Positions 7,015-45,894 of a stretch of 64,000 nucleotides of DNA are shown in pieces. This stretch comes from Candidatus Komeilibacteria bacterium RIFOXYD1_FULL_37_29 (GTDB lineage Bacteria > Patescibacteriota > Patescibacteriia > UBA1558 > GWA2-36-10), in NCBI GenBank assembly GCA_001818495.1, contig MHKS01000005.1:12288-76287 (forward strand), read 5' to 3'. The position numbers were made by a program, and so were the translations under genes. The notes below the pieces were generated by a model, which worked only from the letters and a program-made list of their open reading frames with translations, was not told the origin of the DNA and did no database searches. Position 1 is the first letter of the stretch. Every line of letters begins with the position of its first letter.

Positions 7015-7033
7015 TTATCCACAGTTATCCACA
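7015..7033 (+). promoter_or_regulatory. two tandem perfect DnaA boxes (TTATCCACA g TTATCCACA) just upstream of dnaA
   Basis: Exact consensus 9-mers read directly in the sequence; they fall inside the spurious N-terminal extension of the dnaA ORF. Confidence 0.65.
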
Positions 7034-7122
7034 TGCTATTCACACCATATCAACTACCACCGATATTTTATCTGTGGTATAGTTATACACAGCTAATTTT
7101 TAGACTAAAAATCGCTAAAAAA

Positions 7123-8508
7123 ATGGAAAATAATGACAAAATTTGGGAAAAAACTTTAGGAGAATTAGAGCTCTTAATTAGTAAGGCCAACTTTACCACT
7201 TGGTTTAAAAACACCTTTGTTGCTACTATAGAAAATAACGATATCACCGTGGGCGTACCAAATGCCTTTACTAAAGTTTGGCTAGAAAAAAAATATCATG
7301 ACCAAATTATAGCCGCCCTAGAAAATGTCTTGTCTAAAAATAATCTACAAATTATCTACAAGGTTATTACTAAGGATAGGTCTGCGAATATTAGCCAAGA
7401 AAATACAAAAAAAGTTAATATTAGTAACGGAAAAGAAACCGAAACAATCCAAACATCCACCGAAAACCGCCAGCCAACAGTGGCCCGCTTTGGCTTAAAT
7501 ACTCAATATGTTTTTGAAAGTTTTGTAGTTGGTCCGGGTAATGAATTGGCCCAGGCTGCTGCCCATGCTGCTGCCCAAAAACCAGGCCAAATATATAATC
7601 CGCTCTTTATTTATGGTGGTGTTGGTTTGGGCAAAACTCACTTAGTGCAGGCTGTTGGCAACTATATTTTAGCCAAAGATCCCACTAAAAAGGTAGTTTA
7701 TATTAATAGTGAAAAATTTACCAATGATTTTATTTTTGCTATTAAATCCGGTCAAACTGATAAATTCAAACAAACCTATCGTAATATTGATGTTTTACTA
7801 ATTGATGATATCCAGTTTATCGCTGGTAAAGAGCAAACCCAGGAAGAATTTTTCCATACTTTCAACGCTCTTCATCAAAACAATAAACAAATTGTTATTT
7901 CTTCTGATCGCCCACCCAAGGCCATTCCGGGTATAGAAAATCGATTAATTTCCCGTTTTGAGTGGGGGATGATTGCTGATATTTCCGCTCCCGATCTAGA
8001 AACCCGTATGGCTATCTTAGAAATTAAGGCGCAAGAAAAAAAATATAAACTTAATAAAGATATTATTCACTATGTAGCTGAAAATATCCAAAATAACATT
8101 CGCGAACTAGAGGGTGCTTTAAATAGAATTATTGCCTTTCATCAACTAAACAACACCACACCCACCCTAGATAGTGTTAAGGCTATTTTGGGTGGTCTAT
8201 CTGCCAATCATCGCCGGGCCGGATTAACCCCACGTAAACTTTTAGAATCCATCAGCGTCTTTTATGATATTAGTATGGAAAACTTGCTCGGTGCTAGCCG
8301 TAAAAAAGAGCTGGTGGTTCCTAGACAAATCGCCATGTTTTTAATGCGGGAAGAATTAAAGGCCTCTTATCCCAACATTGGTCAAGAAATTGGGGGCCGA
8401 GATCACACCACCGCCATGCACGCCTGTATTAAAGTTACTACCTTAATAGAAATGGACGAAAAAATAAAAAACGATATCTTAATATTACGACAAAAAATCT
8501 ATGAATAA
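7123..8508 (+). CDS. dnaA: chromosomal replication initiator DnaA
   Basis: AAA+ Walker A GGVGLGKTHL, box VII, and a C-terminal DNA-binding domain. Start moved to MENNDKIWEK because the DnaA boxes lie upstream of it. Confidence 0.95.
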   Translation: MENNDKIWEKTLGELELLISKANFTTWFKNTFVATIENNDITVGVPNAFTKVWLEKKYHDQIIAALENVLSKNNLQIIYKVITKDRSANISQENTKKVNISNGKETETIQTSTENRQPTVARFGLNTQYVFESFVVGPGNELAQAAAHAAAQKPGQIYNPLFIYGGVGLGKTHLVQAVGNYILAKDPTKKVVYINSEKFTNDFIFAIKSGQTDKFKQTYRNIDVLLIDDIQFIAGKEQTQEEFFHTFNALHQNNKQIVISSDRPPKAIPGIENRLISRFEWGMIADISAPDLETRMAILEIKAQEKKYKLNKDIIHYVAENIQNNIRELEGALNRIIAFHQLNNTTPTLDSVKAILGGLSANHRRAGLTPRKLLESISVFYDISMENLLGASRKKELVVPRQIAMFLMREELKASYPNIGQEIGGRDHTTAMHACIKVTTLIEMDEKIKNDILILRQKIYE

Positions 8509-8782
8509 GTTGTTTATAAATTTTTAATAAGTCTGTAGATAAAAAATTATAAATTGTTAACAAACCCCGGACTTATAAACAAAAAATGGACATTCAAAAA
8601 TCACTGGGGATTAAATGACACTTATAAACAAAATTATTCATAACTTACCCCCACATAAAATATAAATAAAAACATAAATTAACTAGAGTTTTTCTCAAAA
8701 AATTTCTCTTATCAACATACCCACAGGCTCTAATACTAATACTTTATTTATATTATAATAATAACTAGTAAATAATAATTAT
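8509..8782. other. candidate oriC / DNA unwinding region between dnaA and dnaN
   Basis: Strongly AT-rich 274-nt spacer with three copies of the box-like TTATAAACA and one TTATCAACA; position is conserved for oriC in many bacteria. Confidence 0.4.
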
Positions 8783-9883
8783 ATGAAAATCGTTTGCACG
8801 CAGGAAAATTTAAACAAAGGATTATCTCTGGTTTCTAATATTGCCAATAAGAGTTCTAATCTTCCTATTTTAAACAATGTTTTATTAAAAGCCGACAAAG
8901 AAGGATTAACTCTGATAACCACCGATCTAGAAATAGGTATTAAGGCTCTTGTGCGCAGCAAGATAGAGGAGCAAGGAGAATTTACCGTTGATGCTAAGCT
9001 ATTACACAATTTCGTTTCTTTCTTGCCCAAAGAAAATATCGAACTAAATTTACAAGAAGATAGTTTGGAAATAAAAAGTTCCAATCAAGAGACCTCTATT
9101 AAGGGTTTGGTGGCCGAAGATTTTCCTCTTATTCCAGACATGGAAAAAACCAATATGGTAGAATTGCCGGTGCAGGAATTTAAAAAAGGACTACACCAAG
9201 TTATTTTAGCGGCTTCTTTGGACACCTCTCGGATTGAGATAAATGCTGTAAATTTTGATTTTCAAAATAATAATTTAGTGTTGGCAGCCACCGACAGCTA
9301 TCGCCTGGCTGAAAAGAAATTAAAATTAGCCAATGGTCAAAAAACTAGTTTAATCATTCCTCTTAAAACCCTCCAGGAATTAAGTCGTATTTTAAACGAG
9401 CAAGCTGAAAAGAAATTAAAGATTTATTTTAATGATAATCAAATATTGTTTGAGTTTGACGGAGTAGAGTTGACCTCTCGAGTTATTGATGGAAAGTATC
9501 CAGACTATAATCAAATTATTCCCGCCCAATTTAAAACCGAAGCCAAGTGTGAAATTAATAAACTGGTTCCCGCTATAAAATCAGTGGCGTTATTTTGTAA
9601 ACAGGGTATCAACGATATTCGTTTGAGCTTAGACAGCAAGAAACAAAAAATAGTTATTGCCACCGCCTCTTCTCACACCGGCACTTCGGTAGCCAAGGTA
9701 GATGCTAAAATATCCGGTGAGGACAACGATATTGTTTTTAACTATCGCTATCTTTTGGATGGTTTGGCACAACTGGGCAGTAGTGAGGTTAATATAAAAA
9801 TGAACAACAACGCCTCTCCAGGATTATTACAGCCGGTCAATGATGATAAATATATTTATTTGGTCATGCCTATTAGGCAATAA
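8783..9883 (+). CDS. dnaN: DNA polymerase III beta sliding clamp
   Basis: 366 aa with three-domain clamp architecture, immediately after dnaA. Confidence 0.9.
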   Translation: MKIVCTQENLNKGLSLVSNIANKSSNLPILNNVLLKADKEGLTLITTDLEIGIKALVRSKIEEQGEFTVDAKLLHNFVSFLPKENIELNLQEDSLEIKSSNQETSIKGLVAEDFPLIPDMEKTNMVELPVQEFKKGLHQVILAASLDTSRIEINAVNFDFQNNNLVLAATDSYRLAEKKLKLANGQKTSLIIPLKTLQELSRILNEQAEKKLKIYFNDNQILFEFDGVELTSRVIDGKYPDYNQIIPAQFKTEAKCEINKLVPAIKSVALFCKQGINDIRLSLDSKKQKIVIATASSHTGTSVAKVDAKISGEDNDIVFNYRYLLDGLAQLGSSEVNIKMNNNASPGLLQPVNDDKYIYLVMPIRQ

Positions 9884-10008: not shown

Positions 10009-10851
10009 ATGCTAGATATACTAATGTTTTTAGTAGATTTGAGCTGGCATATTTTACAATATGTCTGGCAAGGGCTAGTGTGGTTTTTCCACCTGGAAGA
10101 ACGATTACTAATTTGGTTTGATGTTTGGGGTTGGTCAAACGCCTGGCAAATACCAATTATTTCTTTGGTTAATGCGGTGGTAATCGCTCTAGAGATTTTT
10201 GGCTATATTAATTTAGCTAAAATATTTAGAATTTTTAGAATCGTCAAATCTTTTTTTGGTCGTTTACTAGGTAGCCGACTACGCCGATTTTTCAAAAGAG
10301 TTATTCTCTTTATTAGAGAAAAGTTCTTTAGAAAAAAACCAAAAGATCAACCCTCTAAGGTTGCTAGACTACTAACCATTATTTCTCACGACAAGCCGAT
10401 TGGTTGTTTTGGTCTAGCCACCCTGACACTCATCCCCGAATGTCAAAAAGTTGCCTCCTTCATTTTTACTACTCAAAGAAAACGATTGGGACTTGGGGGC
10501 TACTTGTCTTTGTGTGCCGGTGGAACTACCCGTTTGACTTTGGTAGTTTATTTACCAATGGTTGTAGTCTGGTCAGTAATTGTCCTAGCTGTTAGCTGTC
10601 GGCTACTTAAGTGGTTAGTAGAAATTCGCTACGGATTTTTTAGCTGGCAACATCTTTTTGGTCAAGGCGTTTTGTTAATCAACCGTTTGAAGACAATATT
10701 TTTGTTTTCAATGCTAGCGATTTTTTTGCCCACTAGTTTTTTGTACCCAGTCGCTGGGTTATTGGTGTTTTGTCAGATCACCAAACTATTCATTGGTCGT
10801 CATTTTAGACAAAGACCACCAACAGTCACCTCCTCGGAGGAACAAGTTTAA
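10009..10851 (+). CDS. hypothetical multi-pass membrane protein (Arg/Phe/Trp-rich); GC-elevated
   Basis: An 843-nt ORF in about 42% GC DNA, followed by its own hairpin terminator; no family recognised. Confidence 0.5.
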   Translation: MLDILMFLVDLSWHILQYVWQGLVWFFHLEERLLIWFDVWGWSNAWQIPIISLVNAVVIALEIFGYINLAKIFRIFRIVKSFFGRLLGSRLRRFFKRVILFIREKFFRKKPKDQPSKVARLLTIISHDKPIGCFGLATLTLIPECQKVASFIFTTQRKRLGLGGYLSLCAGGTTRLTLVVYLPMVVVWSVIVLAVSCRLLKWLVEIRYGFFSWQHLFGQGVLLINRLKTIFLFSMLAIFLPTSFLYPVAGLLVFCQITKLFIGRHFRQRPPTVTSSEEQV

Positions 10852-12682: not shown

Positions 12683-13519
12683 CTAGGATTGGTGAGTCGG
12701 GAGGAGCCAGTGTTTTCCCCGGCAAGCACCTTTCCATAGCCCTGCTATAACCAGGCATAGCAAAGTGATTAGTAACCCAGTGGCCACAAGAATGTTTATG
12801 GCCAAGGAAAGGGTCCATTGGCCGACTTGTCTAAGCAGTGGCCAGAAATATAAACGGCCGGTTGCCAGCAGGTGTTTGAGGCCCCTAGCAATTAGTAGTA
12901 GTAGCAACACGACCAAAGTCATCACGATGATGGAGACCGGATAAATTAGTGGAGTAAACAAGAAAATTAGTAGTGCCTGTTTAACCGAAAGGCTGGTAGT
13001 CAAGTTGGCTAGACCAGATAAAACAATAAGGGTGTAGAAAAACACCATCGTTGAACCAAAACCATAAGAAAAGGTATTTGGCACTTCATCATCATAAGTA
13101 CTAATCAGATAGTGACGTTTGGTGGCATCGAAATCAGAGGAAAAATAGGCCGATATGAAAACAGAAATTACGATGCTACTAATCACAAAAGTGTGTAAAT
13201 CGTAGCTAGACGAAAAGGCCGTGATAAACAGCGCTTGTAGAACAGCGCGTAGATAGCTGTGCCAGCGAGTTTTGTCCCAAAATGGTTGGAGGGCCAACGC
13301 GTTAGTTTTGACCCAGACGAAGATAAGCACCAATAAGCTGTTGGCTATGGGCCAAACTAACCAAGCTGGCGTGATCGGTGGGACAAGCCAAGGGGCCTGT
13401 TGGGGCAGAACTAAATTCCAAGGATGGAAAATAGCTACCAAGATTGAGAAAAGAAGAGAGACGAAAAAAGTCGTCGCACACCAGCGCCACATGATCATAT
13501 CCCTGATCGTGTAATTCAT
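12683..13519 (-). CDS. hypothetical polytopic membrane protein; strongly GC-shifted (about 48% against a 30-35% background)
   Basis: 278 aa with at least seven hydrophobic helices; no recognised family; has its own terminator. Confidence 0.55.
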   Translation of the reverse strand: MNYTIRDMIMWRWCATTFFVSLLFSILVAIFHPWNLVLPQQAPWLVPPITPAWLVWPIANSLLVLIFVWVKTNALALQPFWDKTRWHSYLRAVLQALFITAFSSSYDLHTFVISSIVISVFISAYFSSDFDATKRHYLISTYDDEVPNTFSYGFGSTMVFFYTLIVLSGLANLTTSLSVKQALLIFLFTPLIYPVSIIVMTLVVLLLLLIARGLKHLLATGRLYFWPLLRQVGQWTLSLAINILVATGLLITLLCLVIAGLWKGACRGKHWLLPTHQS

Positions 13520-29157: not shown

Positions 29158-29187
29158 AAGACTGGTCAATGACCAGTCTTTTTTTCT
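29158..29187. terminator. bidirectional terminator between recA and the convergent Cys-rich gene
   Basis: AAGACTGGTC-aat-GACCAGTCTT followed by TTTTTC. Confidence 0.6.
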
Positions 29188-29552
29188 TTGGGGGTGTTCT
29201 TGTTTTGTAGTATAAAATGTGCCAAGGCTTTGGCCAGTTCAAAGCGGATGCTATTACAGTTGTCTCCATCACCACAGGCCAAAGAATGTCTGCCCATACC
29301 AACGCCAGATAAACATGTACCGTCGTCTTTGGCAAGCATTGTAGCTAACCGAAGGGCTTGTTTATGAGTTTTGACTCGGTAGCGACACGCATCGGGACTG
29401 TATCCAGAATTTTTACATTTTTTGCCCTTACATTTGTGGTCAGGCAAGTAGCTTTTCCCTGGTTCGAGTTTTAGCCATTTTTGGCAGTCGGAGCAAAGAC
29501 CCTCCTCGGTCAAAAATGTCTTTTCGGCCAGCTCTAGCATGCTTCTATTCAT
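29166..29552 (-). CDS. hypothetical Cys-rich protein (possible zinc-ribbon / HNH-like); GC-elevated
   Basis: 128 aa with about ten Cys, including CSDC..DHKCKGKKCKNSG..CRYRVKTHK. About 45% GC; the only long ORF in this interval. Confidence 0.4.
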   Translation of the reverse strand: MNRSMLELAEKTFLTEEGLCSDCQKWLKLEPGKSYLPDHKCKGKKCKNSGYSPDACRYRVKTHKQALRLATMLAKDDGTCLSGVGMGRHSLACGDGDNCNSIRFELAKALAHFILQNKNTPKEKKTGH

Positions 29553-33037: not shown

Positions 33038-33901
33038 ATGAAAAAAGTTAAAAAAGCTATAGTAGCCGTGGCTGGATCCGGTACCAGATTGTTGCCAGCC
33101 ACTAAATCTATGCCTAAAGAAATGTTGCCGATAGTTGATAAACCAGCTATTCAGTGGGTAGTGGAAGAGCTAGTAGCTGGGGGTATAGAGGATATTATTT
33201 TGGTTACTAAATGGGACAAAAAGCCCCTGGAAGATCACTTTGATCATTCTTGGGCTCTAGAGAATGAATTGGCTAAGGCTGGCAAAAAAGATAAGCTAGC
33301 CGAGATTCGTAAGCTTTCCGAAATGGCCAATTTTATCTATGTTCGACAAAAGGGGCCCTATGGAAATGGTACACCAGTTTTGTCCGCTGCTAGTTTGGTA
33401 GACGATGAGCCTTTTATGTATGTTTGGGGAGATGATTTGGTTAAATCTAAGGTTTCTTTTACCAAACAAATGATCGACGAATACAATCGAACTGGTCATT
33501 TGATGATTGGCGTTCAAGAGGTGCCACGTGATCAGGTTAATCGTTATGGTATTGTTAGTTTAAAGGATAAAAAAACTATGCAATTAGACGGCATTATTGA
33601 AAAGCCAGATATCAAATCTGCCCCCTCTCGATTGGCCGATTTTGGACGCATGATACTCAATCAAGATATTATCAATGTTTTACGTAAAACAAAATTGGGT
33701 AAAGGCAAAGAACTTTGGATTGTGGACGCTATACGTGATTATATCAAAGCGGGTGGTGAATTTTATGCTAAGAAAATAGAAGACGGTCAGTGGTTGACTA
33801 CCGGGGACCCTTTAAATCTTCTTAAAGCCAACTTGGAATATGCCAAAGACAGAAAAGAATTGAGGAGTTTTTTAAAAAAATATCTCCAAAATTTAAAATA
33901 A
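33038..33901 (+). CDS. galU: UTP--glucose-1-phosphate uridylyltransferase
   Basis: N-terminal KAIVAVAGSGTRLLPATKSMPKEMLPIVDKPAIQ; predicted near-leaderless transcript from TTTACA-17-TATAAT. Confidence 0.9.
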   Translation: MKKVKKAIVAVAGSGTRLLPATKSMPKEMLPIVDKPAIQWVVEELVAGGIEDIILVTKWDKKPLEDHFDHSWALENELAKAGKKDKLAEIRKLSEMANFIYVRQKGPYGNGTPVLSAASLVDDEPFMYVWGDDLVKSKVSFTKQMIDEYNRTGHLMIGVQEVPRDQVNRYGIVSLKDKKTMQLDGIIEKPDIKSAPSRLADFGRMILNQDIINVLRKTKLGKGKELWIVDAIRDYIKAGGEFYAKKIEDGQWLTTGDPLNLLKANLEYAKDRKELRSFLKKYLQNLK

Positions 33902-33911
33902 TTTTTTAAAC

Positions 33912-35294
33912 ATGCTTGTAAAAAGAAAAATAAAATTATCAACCTTATGCTTATTGGTGATTTTAATAATTAACTCTGGTTTTAGTTGTAAATGGAATCC
34001 TTTTCGTTCTGATCCAGAGCTTTATGAGCCAGTCACTTTGGAATACTGGGGCGTTTGGGATACCCCAGAACAATTACAAACTTTAATTACTGATTATACT
34101 CAGTCTCATCCAACGGTTAAGGTGAATTATAGAAATTTTAGATACGAAGAATATGAAAGAAAATTGTTGGAAGCCTGGGCTGATGACAGAGGCCCTGATG
34201 TCTTTGCTATTCCTTCTACTTGGTTAAAAAGTTACAAGTCTCGTTTGGTTCCAATGCCCGATACTCACCAAATCCCGATTTATGAGCTACAAGGTACTCT
34301 TAAAAAAGAGCAAGTGACCGTATTGAAAACTTTCCGTGGTTTATCAGCCAACGAAGTAAAGAATCAATATGTTTCTGTGGTTTATGACGATGTGATAATG
34401 GATGGTCAGGTCTATGGTCTGCCCTATTATTTGGATACTTTAGCCACTTTTTATAACATTGATTTATTGACACAAGCCGGCATTGCTGAGCCAATTGATG
34501 ATTTTTTTGATTTGGTCGAGCAGGCACCTCGTTTGACTAAGGTTACCGATAGTAATCGTATTATTCAGTCAGCTGTAGCCTTGGGTGGTACTCAAAATAT
34601 TCCGCGTTTTTTTGATATTTTTTCTAGTATCATGCTACAAAACGGTGTAGAAGCCGACGGTAGTCACTTTGATCCTTTGGCTAGTAGGGAATCAGCTACT
34701 CGTTTGGCTCAGGCTTTTGGTTTTTATACGGATTTTTCTCGTCCTGGAAAGGCTAGCTATAGTTGGAACAGCGAAGCGGAAGATGCTTTGGAAATGTTTG
34801 CCAACGGTCGTCTAGCTTATTTTTTTGGTTATAGTTATCATGCTGACCAGCTTCGATCTAGAAATTTACAATTTGATTGGGATATTAAAAATTTTCCACA
34901 GACCCGTGGTGCCCAAGGCACCAAGTATTATGCCGACTACTGGATTAATGTAGTGGCTAAAAAATCCAAAAATACCGACGCAGCCTGGAATTTTATTCAA
35001 AGTACAGCCGCCGAAGATAAAGTAAAAATTTATTTAGAGGCCAATAAGAGGCCGACGGCTCTACGTTCTTTAATTGATGCTCAGTTGGAAGACTATGAGA
35101 TAGCCACCTTTACTTCCCAAGTTTTAACGGCCAGTAATTGGTATAATGGTTACAATATAGCTTTAGCGGAAAAATATACTCGGGAAATAATTGATGATTT
35201 GGTTTCTGGAAAAATGGTTATGGATAAAGAGGGAACGGTCTTGGAATTATTTGTTAATAAAATTAATCAGACCTATGTACCACCTAGCAACTAA
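33912..35294 (+). CDS. extracellular solute-binding protein (ABC-type sugar SBP family 1), probable lipoprotein
   Basis: Signal peptide ending NSGFSC, then an SBP_bac_1-like body; no permease or ATPase nearby. Confidence 0.7.
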   Translation: MLVKRKIKLSTLCLLVILIINSGFSCKWNPFRSDPELYEPVTLEYWGVWDTPEQLQTLITDYTQSHPTVKVNYRNFRYEEYERKLLEAWADDRGPDVFAIPSTWLKSYKSRLVPMPDTHQIPIYELQGTLKKEQVTVLKTFRGLSANEVKNQYVSVVYDDVIMDGQVYGLPYYLDTLATFYNIDLLTQAGIAEPIDDFFDLVEQAPRLTKVTDSNRIIQSAVALGGTQNIPRFFDIFSSIMLQNGVEADGSHFDPLASRESATRLAQAFGFYTDFSRPGKASYSWNSEAEDALEMFANGRLAYFFGYSYHADQLRSRNLQFDWDIKNFPQTRGAQGTKYYADYWINVVAKKSKNTDAAWNFIQSTAAEDKVKIYLEANKRPTALRSLIDAQLEDYEIATFTSQVLTASNWYNGYNIALAEKYTREIIDDLVSGKMVMDKEGTVLELFVNKINQTYVPPSN

Positions 35295-35387
35295 AATTTT
35301 GTAGGTAGGAATAGCCCTCAGTTCTTTTATCAAAATGTGGTTGACTGCCAAAACCTTAAATCATTTTTAAAAAATATTTTAAATATT

Positions 35388-35720
35388 ATGTTTATAAAAA
35401 AAATCATCTTAGCTGTTCTATTATTTCTTCCCAGCCTAGCTCAAGCTCAGGGCGGAGTGCCGTTACCCAATCCTTTGGAAGCTGAAAGCATACCAGAGTT
35501 GGCTGGGCAAATGATTAAAGGTCTTTTAGGAGTCACCGGGGCCATTGCCTTGTTTATGTTGGTCTGGGGAGGTATAGTTTGGATGACTTCTGGGGGTAAT
35601 TCCAATCGCGTAGAGCAGGGTAAAAATACTATTTTATGGGCTATATTGGGGATAGTTATTATATTTATGAGTTATATTATATTGAATTTTGTCTTTGATT
35701 TGATTGGTGGCAATGCCTAG
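35388..35720 (+). CDS. secreted two-TM small protein, paralog 1 (VirB2/TrbC pilin-like topology)
   Basis: Sec signal peptide ending LAQAQ, then TM1, a WMTSGGN loop and TM2. Start moved to MFIKKIIL. Confidence 0.6.
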   Translation: MFIKKIILAVLLFLPSLAQAQGGVPLPNPLEAESIPELAGQMIKGLLGVTGAIALFMLVWGGIVWMTSGGNSNRVEQGKNTILWAILGIVIIFMSYIILNFVFDLIGGNA

Positions 35721-35802
35721 ACACTGTTGATAAAGAATTGTAAAAAAGTGATTTTTGTTTTATACTTTAATTAACATTTTATATTAGAAAGGGGGTGAAA
35801 CA

Positions 35803-36162
35803 ATGAAAAAAATACTTACTTCTTTATTGCTTTTATTACCAGTAGTAGCCAATGCTCAAACAAACCTAGAGGATTGGGGATACAATGATTTTTCAGACAC
35901 TGACATTAAATTAGGATCAAGACCTCTAAGAGACACAATTGGTGGTGTAGTAAACATCATTTTGGGATTTTTAGGAATTTTGACAACTTTAATTATTCTA
36001 ATGGGCGGCTTTAAGTGGATGACTTCACAAGGTAACACTGAAAAAGTTGATGAGGCTAAAAAACTTATCGGCGCTGGTGTTGTCGGTTTAGTTATCGTAT
36101 TAACAGCTTACGCCGTATCTAGATTCGTATTAAGCGAATTATATTCACAAACTGTTGTTTAG
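35803..36162 (+). CDS. secreted two-TM small protein, paralog 2 (VirB2/TrbC pilin-like topology)
   Basis: Signal peptide ending VVANAQ, then TM1, a WMTSQGNTEKV loop and TM2; strong SD (AAAGGGGGTGAAAC). Confidence 0.65.
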   Translation: MKKILTSLLLLLPVVANAQTNLEDWGYNDFSDTDIKLGSRPLRDTIGGVVNIILGFLGILTTLIILMGGFKWMTSQGNTEKVDEAKKLIGAGVVGLVIVLTAYAVSRFVLSELYSQTVV

Positions 36163-36172
36163 TTGACCTATT

Positions 36173-36212
36173 TAGTCTAGACTATAGTAGGTCATTAACT
36201 AATGACCTACTA
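36173..36212. promoter_or_regulatory. two abutting perfect palindromes (12 nt TAGTCTAGACTA and 28 nt TAGTAGGTCATTA-AC-TAATGACCTACTA)
   Basis: Read directly from the sequence, between paralog 2 and 3; no U-run follows. Confidence 0.4.
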
Positions 36213-36238
36213 GAGCTTATACTACATGACAAAAATAG

Positions 36239-36619
36239 ATGTTAAAAAAATTTTATAAATTATCCTTAGCTTTATTTTTATTTTTTGTGCCAGTATTTTT
36301 TGCGTCTGCTCAAGTGATTGGTCAAGATAGTTTAGCTACTGCCGCTCAAAAAGCTGGTTTTGGTGGAGAGACAGATGTTTATGTAATTATTACTCGTTTT
36401 ATCAACGGTTTCCTATCCATTTTTATGATGGTTTTTTTGTATTTTATTATTGCGGCTGGTTTTACTTGGATGACTTCTGGAGGTAATGCTGAAAAGATAA
36501 ATACCGCCAAAGAGACCATTAAATATTCATTGATTGGCATAGTTGTAGCTTTAACTGCTTATTCTCTGGCGCGGTATGTATTATTTGCTATGGGAGCGAC
36601 CACTGGTATTGTCAGGTAA
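36239..36619 (+). CDS. secreted two-TM small protein, paralog 3 (VirB2/TrbC pilin-like topology)
   Basis: Signal peptide ending FFASAQ, then TM1, a WMTSGGNAEKI loop and TM2. Confidence 0.65.
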   Translation: MLKKFYKLSLALFLFFVPVFFASAQVIGQDSLATAAQKAGFGGETDVYVIITRFINGFLSIFMMVFLYFIIAAGFTWMTSGGNAEKINTAKETIKYSLIGIVVALTAYSLARYVLFAMGATTGIVR

Positions 36620-36639
36620 ACATTATTTTGACAAATTTG

Positions 36640-36662
36640 CTCCCCCTAAGGGGAGTTTTTTG
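36640..36662 (+). terminator. intrinsic terminator after paralog 3
   Basis: CTCCCC-ctaa-GGGGAG followed by TTTTTTG. Confidence 0.6.
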
Positions 36663-36701
36663 TTTTCTTTAAAAGATAATTTATGTGGTATAATTAATTT
36701 A

Positions 36702-38594
36702 ATGATAGAAATTTTTAGCAAATACGGCAGTAAATTTTTAGTGGCCTTAATGGGTTTTTATGCCTGTTTGTTTTCTTGGTTAAGCTGGAAAAAATATTAT
36801 AATTTTCATTATAATATTTTTGATTTAGCTATTTTTAATCAAGTTTTTTATAACACTACCCATGGTCGATGGTTTGAGATGACTTTTAATTTACATAATT
36901 ATTTAGCTGATCATTTTTCACCAATTATTTTAGGGTTGCTTCCATTTTATTGGTTGTGGCAGAGTCCGCAAAATTTGTTAATAATACAAAGTATTGTTTT
37001 AGCACTGAGTGGCTGGCCGATTTATTTAATCAGCCAACAAGTTATCGGCCAGAAAAATATTTCTTTAATTATAGTTTGTCTATGGTTTTTAAATTTTATA
37101 CTGCACAATGGTAATTTATATGAATTTCATCTTTTATCCCTGGCGGTATTTTTTGTATTATGGGCTTTTTATTTTTATCAAAAAAATAATTTTAAAATAT
37201 TTTTTCTGTTTTTTGTTTTGGCCTTATTGGTACGCGAAGACATATTCTTGTCTTTACTTGGTTTTTCAATTTTATCTTGTTTGGATAAAAAAGACTATCG
37301 GTGGCGTCTGGCTCCTTTGTTGGGGATTTTATATTTTTTAGGAGCTCTCAAGATAGTTAGTTTTTTCAATTTGGAGACAGAGAATAAATTTTTATTATAT
37401 TATGGTTGGTTGGGAGGAGATGACTTGCTTAGCATATTGTGGGCTTGGGGGACTAATTTTTGGCTATTTTTAGCTCATTTATTTAGTTTAGATAATTTTA
37501 TCAGCTCCCTAATCATTTTAGTTTCAGTGGGATTTTTGCCTTTATTAGCCCCTCGTTATTTGTGGCTTTTATTTTTTCCGCTCTTGCAATTTTTATTCAC
37601 TTCAACTGGGCTAAATAGTGTAGTTTATAGTACGCATTATGGCCTAATTTTTTTGCCGGGGTTGTTTGTTGCTAGTATTTTTGCCTGGAAAAATATATTG
37701 TCTAAAAAAAAGTTTATTTTCAGTTCGGTATTTTATAATAATTTAAATTTTTTTAAGGTCTTATTTATTGTAACAATATTTTATTTTTTTATATTTTTAT
37801 CACCAATTAAAAATATTTTATTTGCCCAGGGGAATTTATCTATAGATAATAATTTAGCCCAAATAAATAAAATTCTATCGCCGTCAGCTAGTTTAGTAGT
37901 TAGCGAAAGTTTGGCGGCGGCTTTTAGTAGTCGGCAGGCAGTTTATCCTTTTCAGTATAGTTATATGGGCCGGGGCCAGTTTTATTTGGAGGAGTTTAAT
38001 TTTCCCGAAGTAGATTATATATTGATTGATACCAACGACATTTTTGAAACACTGGCTTATGTTGATACCAGTAAAGTTATTTTTAATAAAAATTTTGAAC
38101 AAAATATACCCAAGGATTTTAGAGAGCGTTTGGACAATTATATTTTAATTTTTGCTCGCAATAATTTATTATTATGGCAAAATAAAACTATCAGTCAAGA
38201 CAAGGATGCTTTACTTTTGTATAAGTTTATTGACAATCCAGATTTATCTGATAACAGTTCTTTAATATCGGGCTTTGATTATTCTTTTGATTCAGCTGGC
38301 AGTATTTTAAATCTAACTTATCAAAAAACGCAGTTGTTAGAACATAATTATTTGCTACGTTTTTATGCTAAGGATTATTATTTTGATGTGCCTTTAGATT
38401 ATGGCTTATGGCCTCAAGCTGATTGGCCGGAAGATAAGCTTGGTAGTTTTTATTATTATTTAAATCCTGATATTACTGCTTACCAAATTTTTTCTTGGCA
38501 GGGCGAAGTAGCACTAGGACGGTATCGTCAGGCCGAGGTTGATTTTAATCTCAGAGAAATTACTCCTCGTTTGGAGATTGATGGAGCCCTCTAG
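36702..38594 (+). CDS. large polytopic membrane protein, DUF2079-like (putative GT-C-type glycosyltransferase)
   Basis: 630 aa; N-terminal block FDLAIFNQVFYNTTHGRWFEMT...HFSPIILGLLPFYWLW. Start moved downstream of the paralog-3 terminator (track start 36576). Confidence 0.5.
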   Translation: MIEIFSKYGSKFLVALMGFYACLFSWLSWKKYYNFHYNIFDLAIFNQVFYNTTHGRWFEMTFNLHNYLADHFSPIILGLLPFYWLWQSPQNLLIIQSIVLALSGWPIYLISQQVIGQKNISLIIVCLWFLNFILHNGNLYEFHLLSLAVFFVLWAFYFYQKNNFKIFFLFFVLALLVREDIFLSLLGFSILSCLDKKDYRWRLAPLLGILYFLGALKIVSFFNLETENKFLLYYGWLGGDDLLSILWAWGTNFWLFLAHLFSLDNFISSLIILVSVGFLPLLAPRYLWLLFFPLLQFLFTSTGLNSVVYSTHYGLIFLPGLFVASIFAWKNILSKKKFIFSSVFYNNLNFFKVLFIVTIFYFFIFLSPIKNILFAQGNLSIDNNLAQINKILSPSASLVVSESLAAAFSSRQAVYPFQYSYMGRGQFYLEEFNFPEVDYILIDTNDIFETLAYVDTSKVIFNKNFEQNIPKDFRERLDNYILIFARNNLLLWQNKTISQDKDALLLYKFIDNPDLSDNSSLISGFDYSFDSAGSILNLTYQKTQLLEHNYLLRFYAKDYYFDVPLDYGLWPQADWPEDKLGSFYYYLNPDITAYQIFSWQGEVALGRYRQAEVDFNLREITPRLEIDGAL

Positions 38595-38608: not shown

Positions 38609-40189
38609 TTAGATAATCCTATATATTATTGTTTTATCATTTTGATAAACTTCTTTGGCTCCTTGATCTCTGAAAAGATTTTTTATCATTTGATCATGGC
38701 CAAATTTATCTACAAAGATATATTGAGCTTGGAAATATTTTTTTATGTAACTAGCTGGTTTGTAGCTAATATTACCATAAGTTAGCTCTCTATAAAGCCA
38801 GTGTAAATTAGCATCGTAATTTTCTATGAAAGTAGGGTCTAAACCTATAATGTAGTAGTTGTGCGAGCTGTTGTAAAAGAGAATAGGCCATTCATCCCAA
38901 TCACTGTGAAATACTATAGAGTTTTTTGGGGTATTTTTTTCTAACCACTGGCTAGCGGGAACAAATTGGTTTATTTCATAACGGCCTGATAAACGGACAT
39001 TTAATATTTTATCATAGGTTATGGGCATAATCATAATCAGCAAAAGAGTAAAGAATATCATTAAGTAAAGCCGCATTTTAGAAGAGAAATTTTGCCATTT
39101 TATTAAATATTTTTTCTTATCTAAAAATTTATTAATATCTTTGGTGGCACTAGCGGTAAATAGAAGAGCAAATGGTAAGCAATATTCTATATATCTTTTG
39201 GATTTTAGAGTTAAGAGGAAAAATCCCAAGGCCATTAAAAAACTAAAAATACTCAAGTGGCTGGTTTTTTTTATATTTAATAGTAAAACAGCCATGGCCA
39301 ATAGAGCCACAGCGAATAAGTGAGGAGCAGAAGAAACAATTTGACTCAAGGTAGCGCCATACCATTCGCTACCGACAGTAAATTTATCACCCATATTTAT
39401 CACCCCAATTTGTAAAAATTGCTGGTAGTAAAAATAAATATTTTGTGGCCAATAAGGATTGACTATTAATCCAGTGATTAATCCAGCTAATAGGTATGAG
39501 GCTGTTTTTAGCAATTTTGGCCTTTTTTTAAAATGGTCTAGTATTTCAATGCGTTGATTTATAAATATTTTTAACTTATGTTTACTTAATTGGCGATAGA
39601 TTTTTTCTGATAAAATGTAGACAGTTAGTATCACTAGAGCCATTGGCCACCCGCCATAGAGCCAAACAAATAAAATTCCCAGCAGAGTGCTCAGTAGATA
39701 TTTTTGTTTAAATAGAGCGTAAATTATTAGGTAGATAATTAAAAGAGATAAGCTGTTGACTTTGATCAAGGAGATGCGCCAATTAAGGCCATTGAGTATT
39801 AAAAAAGATAGAGCAAATATTAGAGGCCAAGGTATTTTAAATTTTTTCAAAAGCCAGTAAAAAATCAGTATCATAGCCATAGAAAAAAATACAGTAGCGA
39901 TTTTGACAGCTAGTAAAGGGTCCCAAAAAATAGTAAAAGGAGCTAGGAGAATATGATAAAGAAGTTGATGGTCTGTGAAGTTGTCTTTGAGGGTACTAAA
40001 TTGCATCCAGGGTAGGCTTTTTATAAATATACCTTGGCTAATCAGCTGGGCAAGCTTAGCATGATAAAAACCATCAGGATCACCTATAAAATTATTCCAT
40101 TGAATCTGGCCGTAGTAAATAGACATGGTGAAAGCTAGTAGCCAATAGTCTATTTTGTATTTTTCTTTTAGCTTTTTTATGTTAAGCAT
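38609..40189 (-). CDS. large polytopic membrane protein, GT-C fold-like (ArnT/PMT/YfhO-like)
   Basis: 526 aa with about 12 TM helices and an N-terminal DPDGFYHAKLAQLISQG loop motif. Confidence 0.45.
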   Translation of the reverse strand: MLNIKKLKEKYKIDYWLLAFTMSIYYGQIQWNNFIGDPDGFYHAKLAQLISQGIFIKSLPWMQFSTLKDNFTDHQLLYHILLAPFTIFWDPLLAVKIATVFFSMAMILIFYWLLKKFKIPWPLIFALSFLILNGLNWRISLIKVNSLSLLIIYLIIYALFKQKYLLSTLLGILFVWLYGGWPMALVILTVYILSEKIYRQLSKHKLKIFINQRIEILDHFKKRPKLLKTASYLLAGLITGLIVNPYWPQNIYFYYQQFLQIGVINMGDKFTVGSEWYGATLSQIVSSAPHLFAVALLAMAVLLLNIKKTSHLSIFSFLMALGFFLLTLKSKRYIEYCLPFALLFTASATKDINKFLDKKKYLIKWQNFSSKMRLYLMIFFTLLLIMIMPITYDKILNVRLSGRYEINQFVPASQWLEKNTPKNSIVFHSDWDEWPILFYNSSHNYYIIGLDPTFIENYDANLHWLYRELTYGNISYKPASYIKKYFQAQYIFVDKFGHDQMIKNLFRDQGAKEVYQNDKTIIYRII

Positions 40190-45315: not shown

Positions 45316-45894
45316 ATGAAAAAACTTAAATACAATATTATTTTTGAAGGAGCAGAGTTAGCTGGCAAAAGCTACTTAATGAGTCAGGTTTATGATTATT
45401 TGGAGCCCAAATACAATAGTGGAGGCAAGATTATGGATGGTTGTCATTGGTTCAATTGCGATGTGGGAATTTTTGGTACCAAATTTGGTCAAAAAGCCCT
45501 CGAACATTATTTAGGACTGTTGGAGGATATAACAGATGTTAGTGTTATGATAGAAAAATTTCACCTGACGGAAGCAGTTTATCAAAAATTGTATAATCAG
45601 AAAGATTTTAATTTTTCCAAGATGGAAGAGCGGCTTTATAAGATAAAAACTAAGATTGTTTTATTAATTTTTGATGAAGATGAAAAATTACTCCAGCAAA
45701 GATTGGATGATCGCTTAAAATTGTACCATCACTATAGTCGGATTGCCAGTCGTCCGGCAGATTATATCAAACAGCAACAGCTTTATTTGGAGTTTATAAA
45801 AAAAAGTAAGTTAGATTATTTGATTATCAACTCATCGAAGTTGCCCAATCCGTCTTTGGTAGCTAAGATTTTGGAATTTTTAGGAGAAAAATAA
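45316..45894 (+). CDS. P-loop NTPase, nucleoside/nucleotide-kinase-like
   Basis: 192 aa with Walker A FEGAELAGKSY. Confidence 0.45.
   Translation: MKKLKYNIIFEGAELAGKSYLMSQVYDYLEPKYNSGGKIMDGCHWFNCDVGIFGTKFGQKALEHYLGLLEDITDVSVMIEKFHLTEAVYQKLYNQKDFNFSKMEERLYKIKTKIVLLIFDEDEKLLQQRLDDRLKLYHHYSRIASRPADYIKQQQLYLEFIKKSKLDYLIINSSKLPNPSLVAKILEFLGEK

Follow-up and report, generated by a model that had tools for sequence, protein, structure and literature searches.

The stretch of DNA analyzed here comprises 64,000 nucleotides of contig MHKS01000005.1 from the bacterium Candidatus Komeilibacteria RIFOXYD1_FULL_37_29, the whole of which is referred to as the window, and it encodes a tandem triplet of small secreted proteins that resemble the VirB2/TrbC pilins of type IV secretion systems (T4SSs). 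The proteins are designated as pilins A, B and C. Pilin A is encoded on the + strand at 35388..35720 (110 aa; A2406_00065; exact match to OGY93373.1), followed on the same strand by pilin B at 35803..36162 (119 aa; A2406_00060), the most conserved paralogue, and pilin C at 36239..36619 (126 aa; A2406_00055), the fastest-evolving one. All three are identical to the proteins A2406_00065, A2406_00060 and A2406_00055 of Candidatus Komeilibacteria RIFOXYC1_FULL_37_11 (GCA_001818445.1, class ABY1), and statements on the same genome refer to this A2406 genome, which carries the identical triplet. For pilin A, the ATG at 35388 resulting in 110 aa is used in independent gene calls on at least 20 metagenomic contigs; the start in GenBank is the upstream GTG at 35337, resulting in 127 aa. 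The array is preceded by a gene for an extracellular solute-binding protein (SBP), an RNA hairpin is located between pilins B and C, and a terminator-like hairpin follows pilin C.

Architecture and family assignment of the triplet

The original prediction of three consecutive, paralogous genes of 110-126 aa on one strand was confirmed by the open reading frames (ORFs) at these positions. A family profile hidden Markov model (HMM) detects exactly A, B and C in the 64 kb window, and no further match to it was found in the 10 kb past each window edge. With the signal peptides removed, pairwise BLASTP comparisons among the three proteins resulted in E-values of 1e-12 to 1e-16, so that their paralogy goes beyond chance, and the global identities are 26-31%. 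An interpretation of the triplet as chance ORFs was rejected.

Hydropathy analysis revealed three hydrophobic segments per protein, i.e., a signal peptide and two helices, the latter at 42-68 and 78-107 in pilin A with equivalents in B and C. As had been proposed, the Sec signals end in an AxA-Q motif: judged by sequence heuristics, they possess K-rich n-regions, a hydrophobic core of 12-16 residues and AxA at -3/-1, with cleavage predicted between AQA and Q in A, ANA and Q in B, and ASA and Q in C. The predicted cleavage site is followed in each protein by 19-28 mostly acidic residues. The two helices are joined by the motif WMTS[GQ]GN plus a K/R-containing stretch, the loops containing two to three K/R residues, and the loop sequences quoted earlier proved exact in A, B and C; in pilin A, the segment behind the signal peptide forms a two-helix hairpin with the loop WMTSGGNSNRVEQGKN. 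AlphaFold2 (59-sequence alignment) predicted for pilin A helices at 2-19, 35-66 and 72-107 with a mean predicted local distance difference test score (pLDDT) of 82.7, which reaches 89-96 over the hairpin helices 35-66 and 72-107, and a low-confidence linker after helix 2-19.

The profile search suggested along with the VirB2/TrbC pilin-like identity was run and it bore this identity out. The family PF18895 (T4SS_pilin; gathering cut-off 26.6 bits) is matched above its cut-off by all three proteins, with 45.8 bits for A, 34.6 bits for B and 36.7 bits for C and with 67-70 of the 71 profile positions covered, and PF04956 (TrbC/VirB2; cut-off 27.9 bits) is matched by A with 35.2 bits (E = 1.5e-8). 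Pilin B stays below the PF04956 cut-off (18.2 bits) and pilin C yielded no match to this family, and many B-type orthologues carry a precomputed PF04956 match. The PF18895 and PF04956 alignments are in register over 69-83 profile positions. Hundreds of homologues have the same precomputed domains, some of them named "pilin", "TrbC/VirB2 family protein" or "VirB2 component". The family is a very large one, as a profile built from A, B and C recovered 70,446 representative sequences (clusters of 50% identity) at a threshold of E <= 1e-3 and still 20,554 at E <= 1e-10. The best NCBIfam match of the three proteins is NF045849 (Mbov_0395/MMCAP2_0565 pilin-like), with 28.5-38.1 bits, which is below the equivalog cut-off of 40 bits. 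Direct comparison of the family profile with VirB2 of A. tumefaciens by hhalign, using a VirB2 sequence that is 100% identical over 120 aa to the one in an annotated Ti-plasmid record, placed helix, loop and helix in register (P = 2.9e-4), with GIVWMTS opposite to VirB2 GISWMFG and W65-M66 on the VirB2 W-M; the loop is eight residues longer in the family than in VirB2. Based on these results, there is hardly any doubt that A, B and C are members of the VirB2/TrbC-type T4SS pilin family.

Searches against PDB chains with pilin A and with a 59-sequence profile returned only compositional matches (G protein-coupled receptors, GPCRs), VirB2 appearing at E of ~8-10, and a fold search was non-specific. 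Besides the pilin families, the Pfam scan of the triplet gave weak matches to Chromate_transp and DUF4064. A reading as type IV or Flp pilin was rejected, as there was no N_methyl or Flp match at E <= 1 in Pfam and none in NCBIfam, and the leader is not of the class III prepilin type but a classical Sec signal with AxA, behind which come 19-28 hydrophilic residues.

Coupling to a solute-binding protein gene and RNA elements of the array

The gene preceding the triplet encodes an SBP_bac_1 extracellular solute-binding protein (33912..35294, + strand; 460 aa) with an N-terminal hydrophobic signal and matches to the Pfam families SBP_bac_1/SBP_bac_8, and in front of it lies a gene for an NTP_transferase, a GalU-like sugar-1-phosphate nucleotidylyltransferase (33038..33901, + strand; Pfam PF00483). 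This arrangement was followed in 80 loci from GTDB species representatives, which were found with an alignment of B-type pilins; as B-type patterns were used for the search, the set is biased to B-like ABY1 pilins. An SBP_bac_1 gene lies directly before the array in 48 of the 70 loci with enough upstream sequence (L021-L100), and in most SBP-type loci the SBP gene is itself preceded by NTP_transferase. The SBP-type loci include Uhrbacteria, Falkowbacteria and Magasanikbacteria, with SBP identities down to 30-40%. In 44 of 51 SBP ORFs, the stop is separated from the start of the leading pilin gene by -86 to +28 nt, the negative values being inflated by the use of maximal ORFs; in the window the distance is 93 nt. 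An ORF similar to ATPases of ATP-binding cassette (ABC) transporters was found near the array in only 4 of 49 SBP-type loci, and none was found in the window. Both words "solute" and "substrate-binding" are absent from the searched text of a survey of Patescibacterial pilin arrays (Quinonero-Coronel et al., 2025, Microb Genom, PMC12102498), and the SBP coupling looks new with respect to the published array descriptions.

The wider neighbourhood is conserved as well. Upstream of the pilins the window encodes FtsK (a genuine FtsK, in which the alpha and the gamma domain are present), an HTH_25 protein, RecA, a Wzx-type flippase, Wzy_C, DUF6498, NTP_transferase and SBP_bac_1, and downstream DUF2079, a 526-aa polytopic protein, YebC, RuvC and glycogen enzymes. 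Genes also found upstream of the array are dnaA, dnaN and rpoBC. The block from FtsK via NTP_transferase, SBP, pilins and DUF2079 to RuvC is syntenic in related genomes. An envelope-glycan setting of the triplet had been noted before and it stands as conserved synteny; among the neighbours, the SBP gene is the strongest, and it had not been singled out. The presence of Wzx, Wzy_C and DUF2079, together with a PMT_2 protein in locus L019, suggests a possible glycan or protein-glycosylation neighbourhood around the pilins. The 526-aa polytopic membrane protein itself (38609-40189, - strand) has no Pfam match, and in the same neighbourhood of locus L019 a 527-aa protein encoded on the opposite strand matches PMT_2, a GT-C glycosyltransferase family. 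Four further conserved ORFs of 128-280 aa in the window are without Pfam match (10009-10851, +; 12683-13519, -; 29166-29552, -; 45316-45894, +). The genes dnaA and dnaN are located at 7033-9883, ~26-28 kb upstream of the triplet, which places the array fairly near to the replication origin; origin-proximal T4SS genes were described for some Patescibacteria in the survey (PMC12102498).

Between pilins B and C, an intercistronic RNA hairpin was identified at 36173..36224 (+ strand), 11 nt past the B stop and 14 nt before the C start, with an interrupted stem of ~21 bp and a minimum free energy of -21 kcal/mol (z = -4.5). Its 5' arm begins with the perfect 12-nt palindrome TAGTCTAGACTA, which is unique in the window and invariant in 29 of 29 aligned loci. 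In the alignment of these 29 loci, 97% of the cells are paired and 9 of the 21 pairs show compensatory (double) changes; none of 500 shuffles reached the observed pairing and covariation, and slid controls were 27-44% paired. In more distant genomes the inner stem is fully changed and still paired. A covariance model matches in 32 loci, i.e., the window and 31 others (L007 at ~10361-10412, L009, L020, the range L021-L049, L060, L067 and L069), two of which, L034 and L045, cover again the contigs of L009 and L020. The match lies at the motif position just after a B-like match, once per locus and twice in L040; the model had no matches elsewhere in 1.5 Mb. The sense strand scores ~19-49 bits above the antisense strand, and G-U pairs are frequent on it. 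No Rfam family matches the hairpin region, the sole hit being a chance snoRNA at E = 0.39, and the hairpin is not mentioned in the consulted parts of the survey (PMC12102498). The hairpin with its covarying stem likewise looks new compared with the published descriptions of such arrays.

Further expression signals were read in the sequence. Pilin B is preceded by a strong Shine-Dalgarno sequence, AGGGGGTG, the sole strong one in the triplet, and ahead of the gene there is a promoter-like site at 35738-35766. An intrinsic-terminator-like hairpin with T-run, GCTCCCCCTAAGGGGAGT followed by TTTTTGTTTT, is found at 36639..36666 (+ strand), 20 nt past the C stop (z = -2.6 for 82 nt folded), and transcription of the pilin unit probably ends there. 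Behind the last gene of related arrays there is usually a stem of at least 9 perfect bp, in many cases GC-rich and T-flanked. The annotated ORF of DUF2079 (36576-36702 region) shares 44 nt with pilin C, and the terminator hairpin is translated in its first 42 codons; the protein probably begins at the ATG at 36702, which would result in a protein of ~630 aa compared to 604-633 aa in relatives.

Paralogue history and T4SS genes elsewhere in the genome

The positional orthologues of pilin A in related genomes are 51-67% identical and those of pilin B 66-76%, while identities between paralogues are 26-40% in the matrix of orthologues and paralogues. For pilin C, the identities from C to C are 30-47% overall and only 30-34% for the C of the window, which is no closer than to the paralogues. 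The higher identity of A and B to their positional orthologues, compared with that between paralogues, marks the three genes as old and individually maintained. B is the most constrained and C the least constrained paralogue, and the triplet represents an old, stable division of labour rather than rapid variation. The idea of a surface-exposed, variable N-terminus next to a structurally constrained turn was thus upheld in part: the N-termini diverge while the loop is conserved, but a rapid variation is not supported, as each paralogue has a positional orthologue.

The array size ranges from 1 to 12 genes across related genomes. Most relatives encode a fourth member, placed first in line, of 211-272 aa, in which the pilin module is followed by a Cys-rich C-terminal extension of ~100 aa or more (examples are L007 8919-9554, L009 8917-9570, L019 9157-9975 and L020 9196-9924). 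This Cys-rich member is missing in a few other genomes and in the window, where only the mentioned 93 nt separate the SBP stop from the start of A. Among the best matches of the family profile are also "poly-pilin" proteins, which carry one signal peptide and 2-17 tandem modules of transmembrane helix, loop and transmembrane helix, such as P0170 (552 aa, 6 modules), P0172 (1775 aa, 17 modules), P0183 and P0189. Furthermore, giant predicted proteins starting with a single VirB2-like module are encoded in L055 (11598-19160; 2520 aa), L061 (11646-20318), L095 (9944-20020; 3358 aa) and L098, and P0280 (3310 aa) is another giant with an N-terminal pilin module. In these giants the pilin module looks as if it were the membrane or filament anchor of a huge surface protein.

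The Pfam scan of the window covered every ORF of ~100 aa or more that is not nested within a longer ORF in a different frame or strand. VirB4, VirD4, VirB6 and other T4SS families were found in none of these sizeable ORFs, and T4SS families were likewise found in none of the 10 kb past either window edge, so that the triplet has no T4SS gene within ~84 kb. The A2406 genome, however, contains a second pilin pair, A2406_02155/A2406_02160, with 71 and 85% identity to pilin B. On contigs that encode the identical 118-aa A2406_02155 (P0030), one of which comes from the same assembly as window-identical contigs, the order is two small proteins, an 817-aa VirD4/T4CP-like ATPase, a 195-aa protein, dnaX and the pilin pair. 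The second pilin locus (L102 4159-10777; L026 4108-10375; L103 178-954 [A2406 genome]) carries 1-3 B-type pilins after dnaX, followed by uppS and then by a Beta_propel protein, and a further DUF8128 ATPase is located ~9 kb downstream, extending past the locus edge. For the 817-aa ATPase in L102, the precomputed domains are an N-terminal DUF8128, T4SS-DNA_transf, DUF87 and TrwB_AAD_bind. The tests against Pfam, NCBIfam and PDB were made on its homologue in the related genome of L026; they assigned to this homologue DUF87, T4SS-DNA_transf, TrwB_AAD_bind and TraG-D_C, a TraD-/VirD4-like NCBIfam match and TrwB in the PDB. The two-locus arrangement was found in at least four other genomes (L021/L026, L024/L022, L025/L023 and L027/L028). 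In addition, GCA_001818445.1 (ABY1) is listed in Table S1 of the survey as VirB4-positive, like every Komeilibacteria entry in the retrieved passages (PMC12102498), and the presence of VirB4 in the A2406 genome is taken from this listing. The earlier description of the pilin genes as orphan therefore fits the locus, in which no T4SS ATPase is present, but not the genome, with its VirB4-positive listing and its second pilin pair, which on same-species contigs is located beside a VirD4-like ATPase.

Role of the array and comparison with known systems

We favour, with a probability of about 0.7, the interpretation that A, B and C contribute subunits to a T4SS filament, most of all B, and that the machinery for this filament is encoded elsewhere. 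The proteins would be exported by the Sec pathway and cleaved by signal peptidase I between AxA and Q, leaving the hairpins in the membrane with the K/R-containing WMTSxGN loop in the cytoplasm. The T4SS ATPase machinery from other loci would then extract the hairpins and polymerise them into a surface filament, the lumen of which would be lined by the loop while the variable N-terminal segment would be presented on the surface, and the filament may be used in host-cell contact. The steps of export, membrane topology and polymerisation are modelled on what is established for VirB2, TraA and TrbC. Pilin B is probably the main subunit: no other paralogue is as conserved or has a strong Shine-Dalgarno sequence, and B also has a promoter-like site, further copies at the ATPase locus and the hairpin behind its gene. 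For A and C, specialised or minor roles in the filament would remain. The RNA hairpin most likely determines in which ratio B and C are expressed, as it may stabilise the B message at its 3' end or serve as processing site, and the terminator after C would close the unit. The SBP-like protein probably works together with the pilins at the cell surface.

These elements may be combined, as a tentative extension that we regard as doubtful at present, to a joint reading in which the ABY1 pilin array is a module separate from the T4SS core. This module would be conserved and consist of NTP_transferase, an SBP_bac_1 lipoprotein whose gene is coupled to that of the first pilin, a series of 3-12 VirB2-like pilins and, in a Komeilibacteria-like subset, the hairpin. 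The SBP-like protein would then not be a transporter component but a ligand-binding partner that the VirB2-type filament displays or loads, and it would, e.g., capture sugars derived from the host or recognise glycans on the host surface; the pilins might be glycosylated by the Wzy_C/GT-C enzymes encoded nearby, and the hairpin would be an undescribed cis-regulatory RNA fixing the pilin stoichiometry.

Several observations speak for an alternative in which the proteins are VirB2-fold membrane hairpins that form no pilus. They would remain in the cytoplasmic membrane and act there, independently of a T4SS, as small integral subunits or as anchors in an assembly for transport or at the surface, together with the SBP-like protein and the glycan enzymes. 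The array is unlinked to T4SS genes and, in the 48 of 70 loci, tightly coupled to the SBP gene, and it belongs to the conserved block that also holds Wzx, Wzy_C, DUF6498, NTP_transferase and DUF2079. T4SSs of monoderm bacteria are normally without pilus (PMC10633639; PMC12102498). The 2-17-fold tandem fusions and the N-terminal modules of proteins of 2500-3300 aa are membrane-anchor-like, and these poly-pilin fusions and giant pilin-anchored proteins question whether all family members build pili. We nevertheless consider a pilus-free role unlikely. The curated TrbC/VirB2 and T4SS_pilin matches argue against it, as do the near-identical B-type paralogues beside a VirD4-like ATPase in the same species. 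The N and C termini of the subunits both face outward in VirB2 pili, as in the T-pilus and F-pilus structures, and the tandem and giant fusions are thus also compatible with a filament. In Saccharibacteria, moreover, the array lies inside the T4SS cluster and both are essential together (PMC10633639).

Quite improbable is a function of the triplet as three interchangeable variants of a major pilin that serve antigenic or host-range variation, as proposed for VirB2 of Bartonella and Anaplasma. The exposed N-terminal segments are wholly different while loop and helices are conserved, the array size differs from 1 to 12 genes between related genomes, and this hypothesis was raised for Patescibacteria in the survey (PMC12102498). 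However, A and B are 51-67% and 66-76% identical to their own orthologues as opposed to the 26-40% between paralogues, fast divergence is seen only in C, and a dedicated, conserved RNA element is found specifically after the B-type gene. Position-specific orthology and the B-specific RNA element argue for fixed, distinct roles and not for a shuffling repertoire, and a cassette for rapid antigenic variation was rejected due to the position-specific orthology of A and B. Finally, membership in another class of small proteins (type IV/Flp pilin, holin or bacteriocin-like peptide) with a merely compositional VirB2 resemblance, which could be suspected from the GPCR, Chromate_transp and DUF4064 matches that short proteins with two transmembrane helices draw and from the non-specific fold search, is effectively refuted by the matches to PF18895 and PF04956 above curated cut-offs and in register, by the classical Sec/signal peptidase I AxA signal in place of a class III prepilin leader and by the lack of any Flp, N-methyl pilin or holin match at E <= 1 in Pfam and of any such match in NCBIfam.

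VirB2-like pilins in a monoderm lineage are among the odd features of the T4SS in Patescibacteria, a system that the sole species tested needs for epibiotic growth. On this point the locus adds nothing, as the family, the arrays and GCA_001818445.1 have already been surveyed. Most related ABY1 arrays are located away from virB4 and joined to an SBP gene without ABC transporter partner nearby, and the SBP coupling and the hairpin constitute testable leads on the balance of pilin expression and on the role of the filament at the host interface.

In the survey, 3,035 Patescibacteria genomes were searched with the same two Pfam models, PF18895 and PF04956, resulting in 441 VirB2 arrays, which comprise 2-11 genes and are spread over 383 assemblies; the mean within-array identity was 25%, and pilins were found near virB4 in 1,135 of the 1,948 assemblies having both (PMC12102498). 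An array was defined there as at least two pilin genes in tandem or one gene apart with low mutual identity in a Patescibacteria genome (PMC12102498). The triplet, with three adjacent genes of 26-31% identity in Candidatus Komeilibacteria of the class ABY1, agrees with this definition and resembles the reported arrays in its tandem, same-strand PF18895/PF04956 genes. As such arrays are published, in a survey that covered GCA_001818445.1, the class is already known, and the triplet is probably a further, already counted member of the Patescibacterial VirB2-like arrays. In Southlakia epibionticum, an essential pilin array is embedded in the T4SS cluster, which is essential as well (Wang et al., 2023, Cell, PMC10633639), and the essentiality of this pilin series was restated in a 2025 review. 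There the six pilins are part of the T4SS cluster, whereas the triplet described here is unlinked, coupled to NTP_transferase-SBP_bac_1 and equipped with a hairpin after B.

With VirB2 of A. tumefaciens and TrbC of RP4 (PF04956), the major subunits of T-pilus and P-pilus, the triplet shares the signal peptide, in its case predicted to be cleaved, the two hydrophobic helices and the short loop with conserved Trp and basic residues; it differs in its monoderm host, in the absence of an adjacent virB operon, in a loop that is ~8 residues longer and in the PF04956 scores of B and C below the cut-off. Similarly, the Mbov_0395/MMCAP2_0565 proteins (NF045849) of integrative and conjugative elements (ICEs) of Mycoplasma are small VirB2-like proteins with two helices from wall-less or monoderm bacteria, but the triplet has no ICE context. 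The multi-copy virB2 genes of Bartonella and Anaplasma, as cited in the survey (PMC12102498), show a comparable tandem amplification of divergent VirB2 genes; these are thought to serve antigenic variation, whereas the paralogues found here are old and kept by position.

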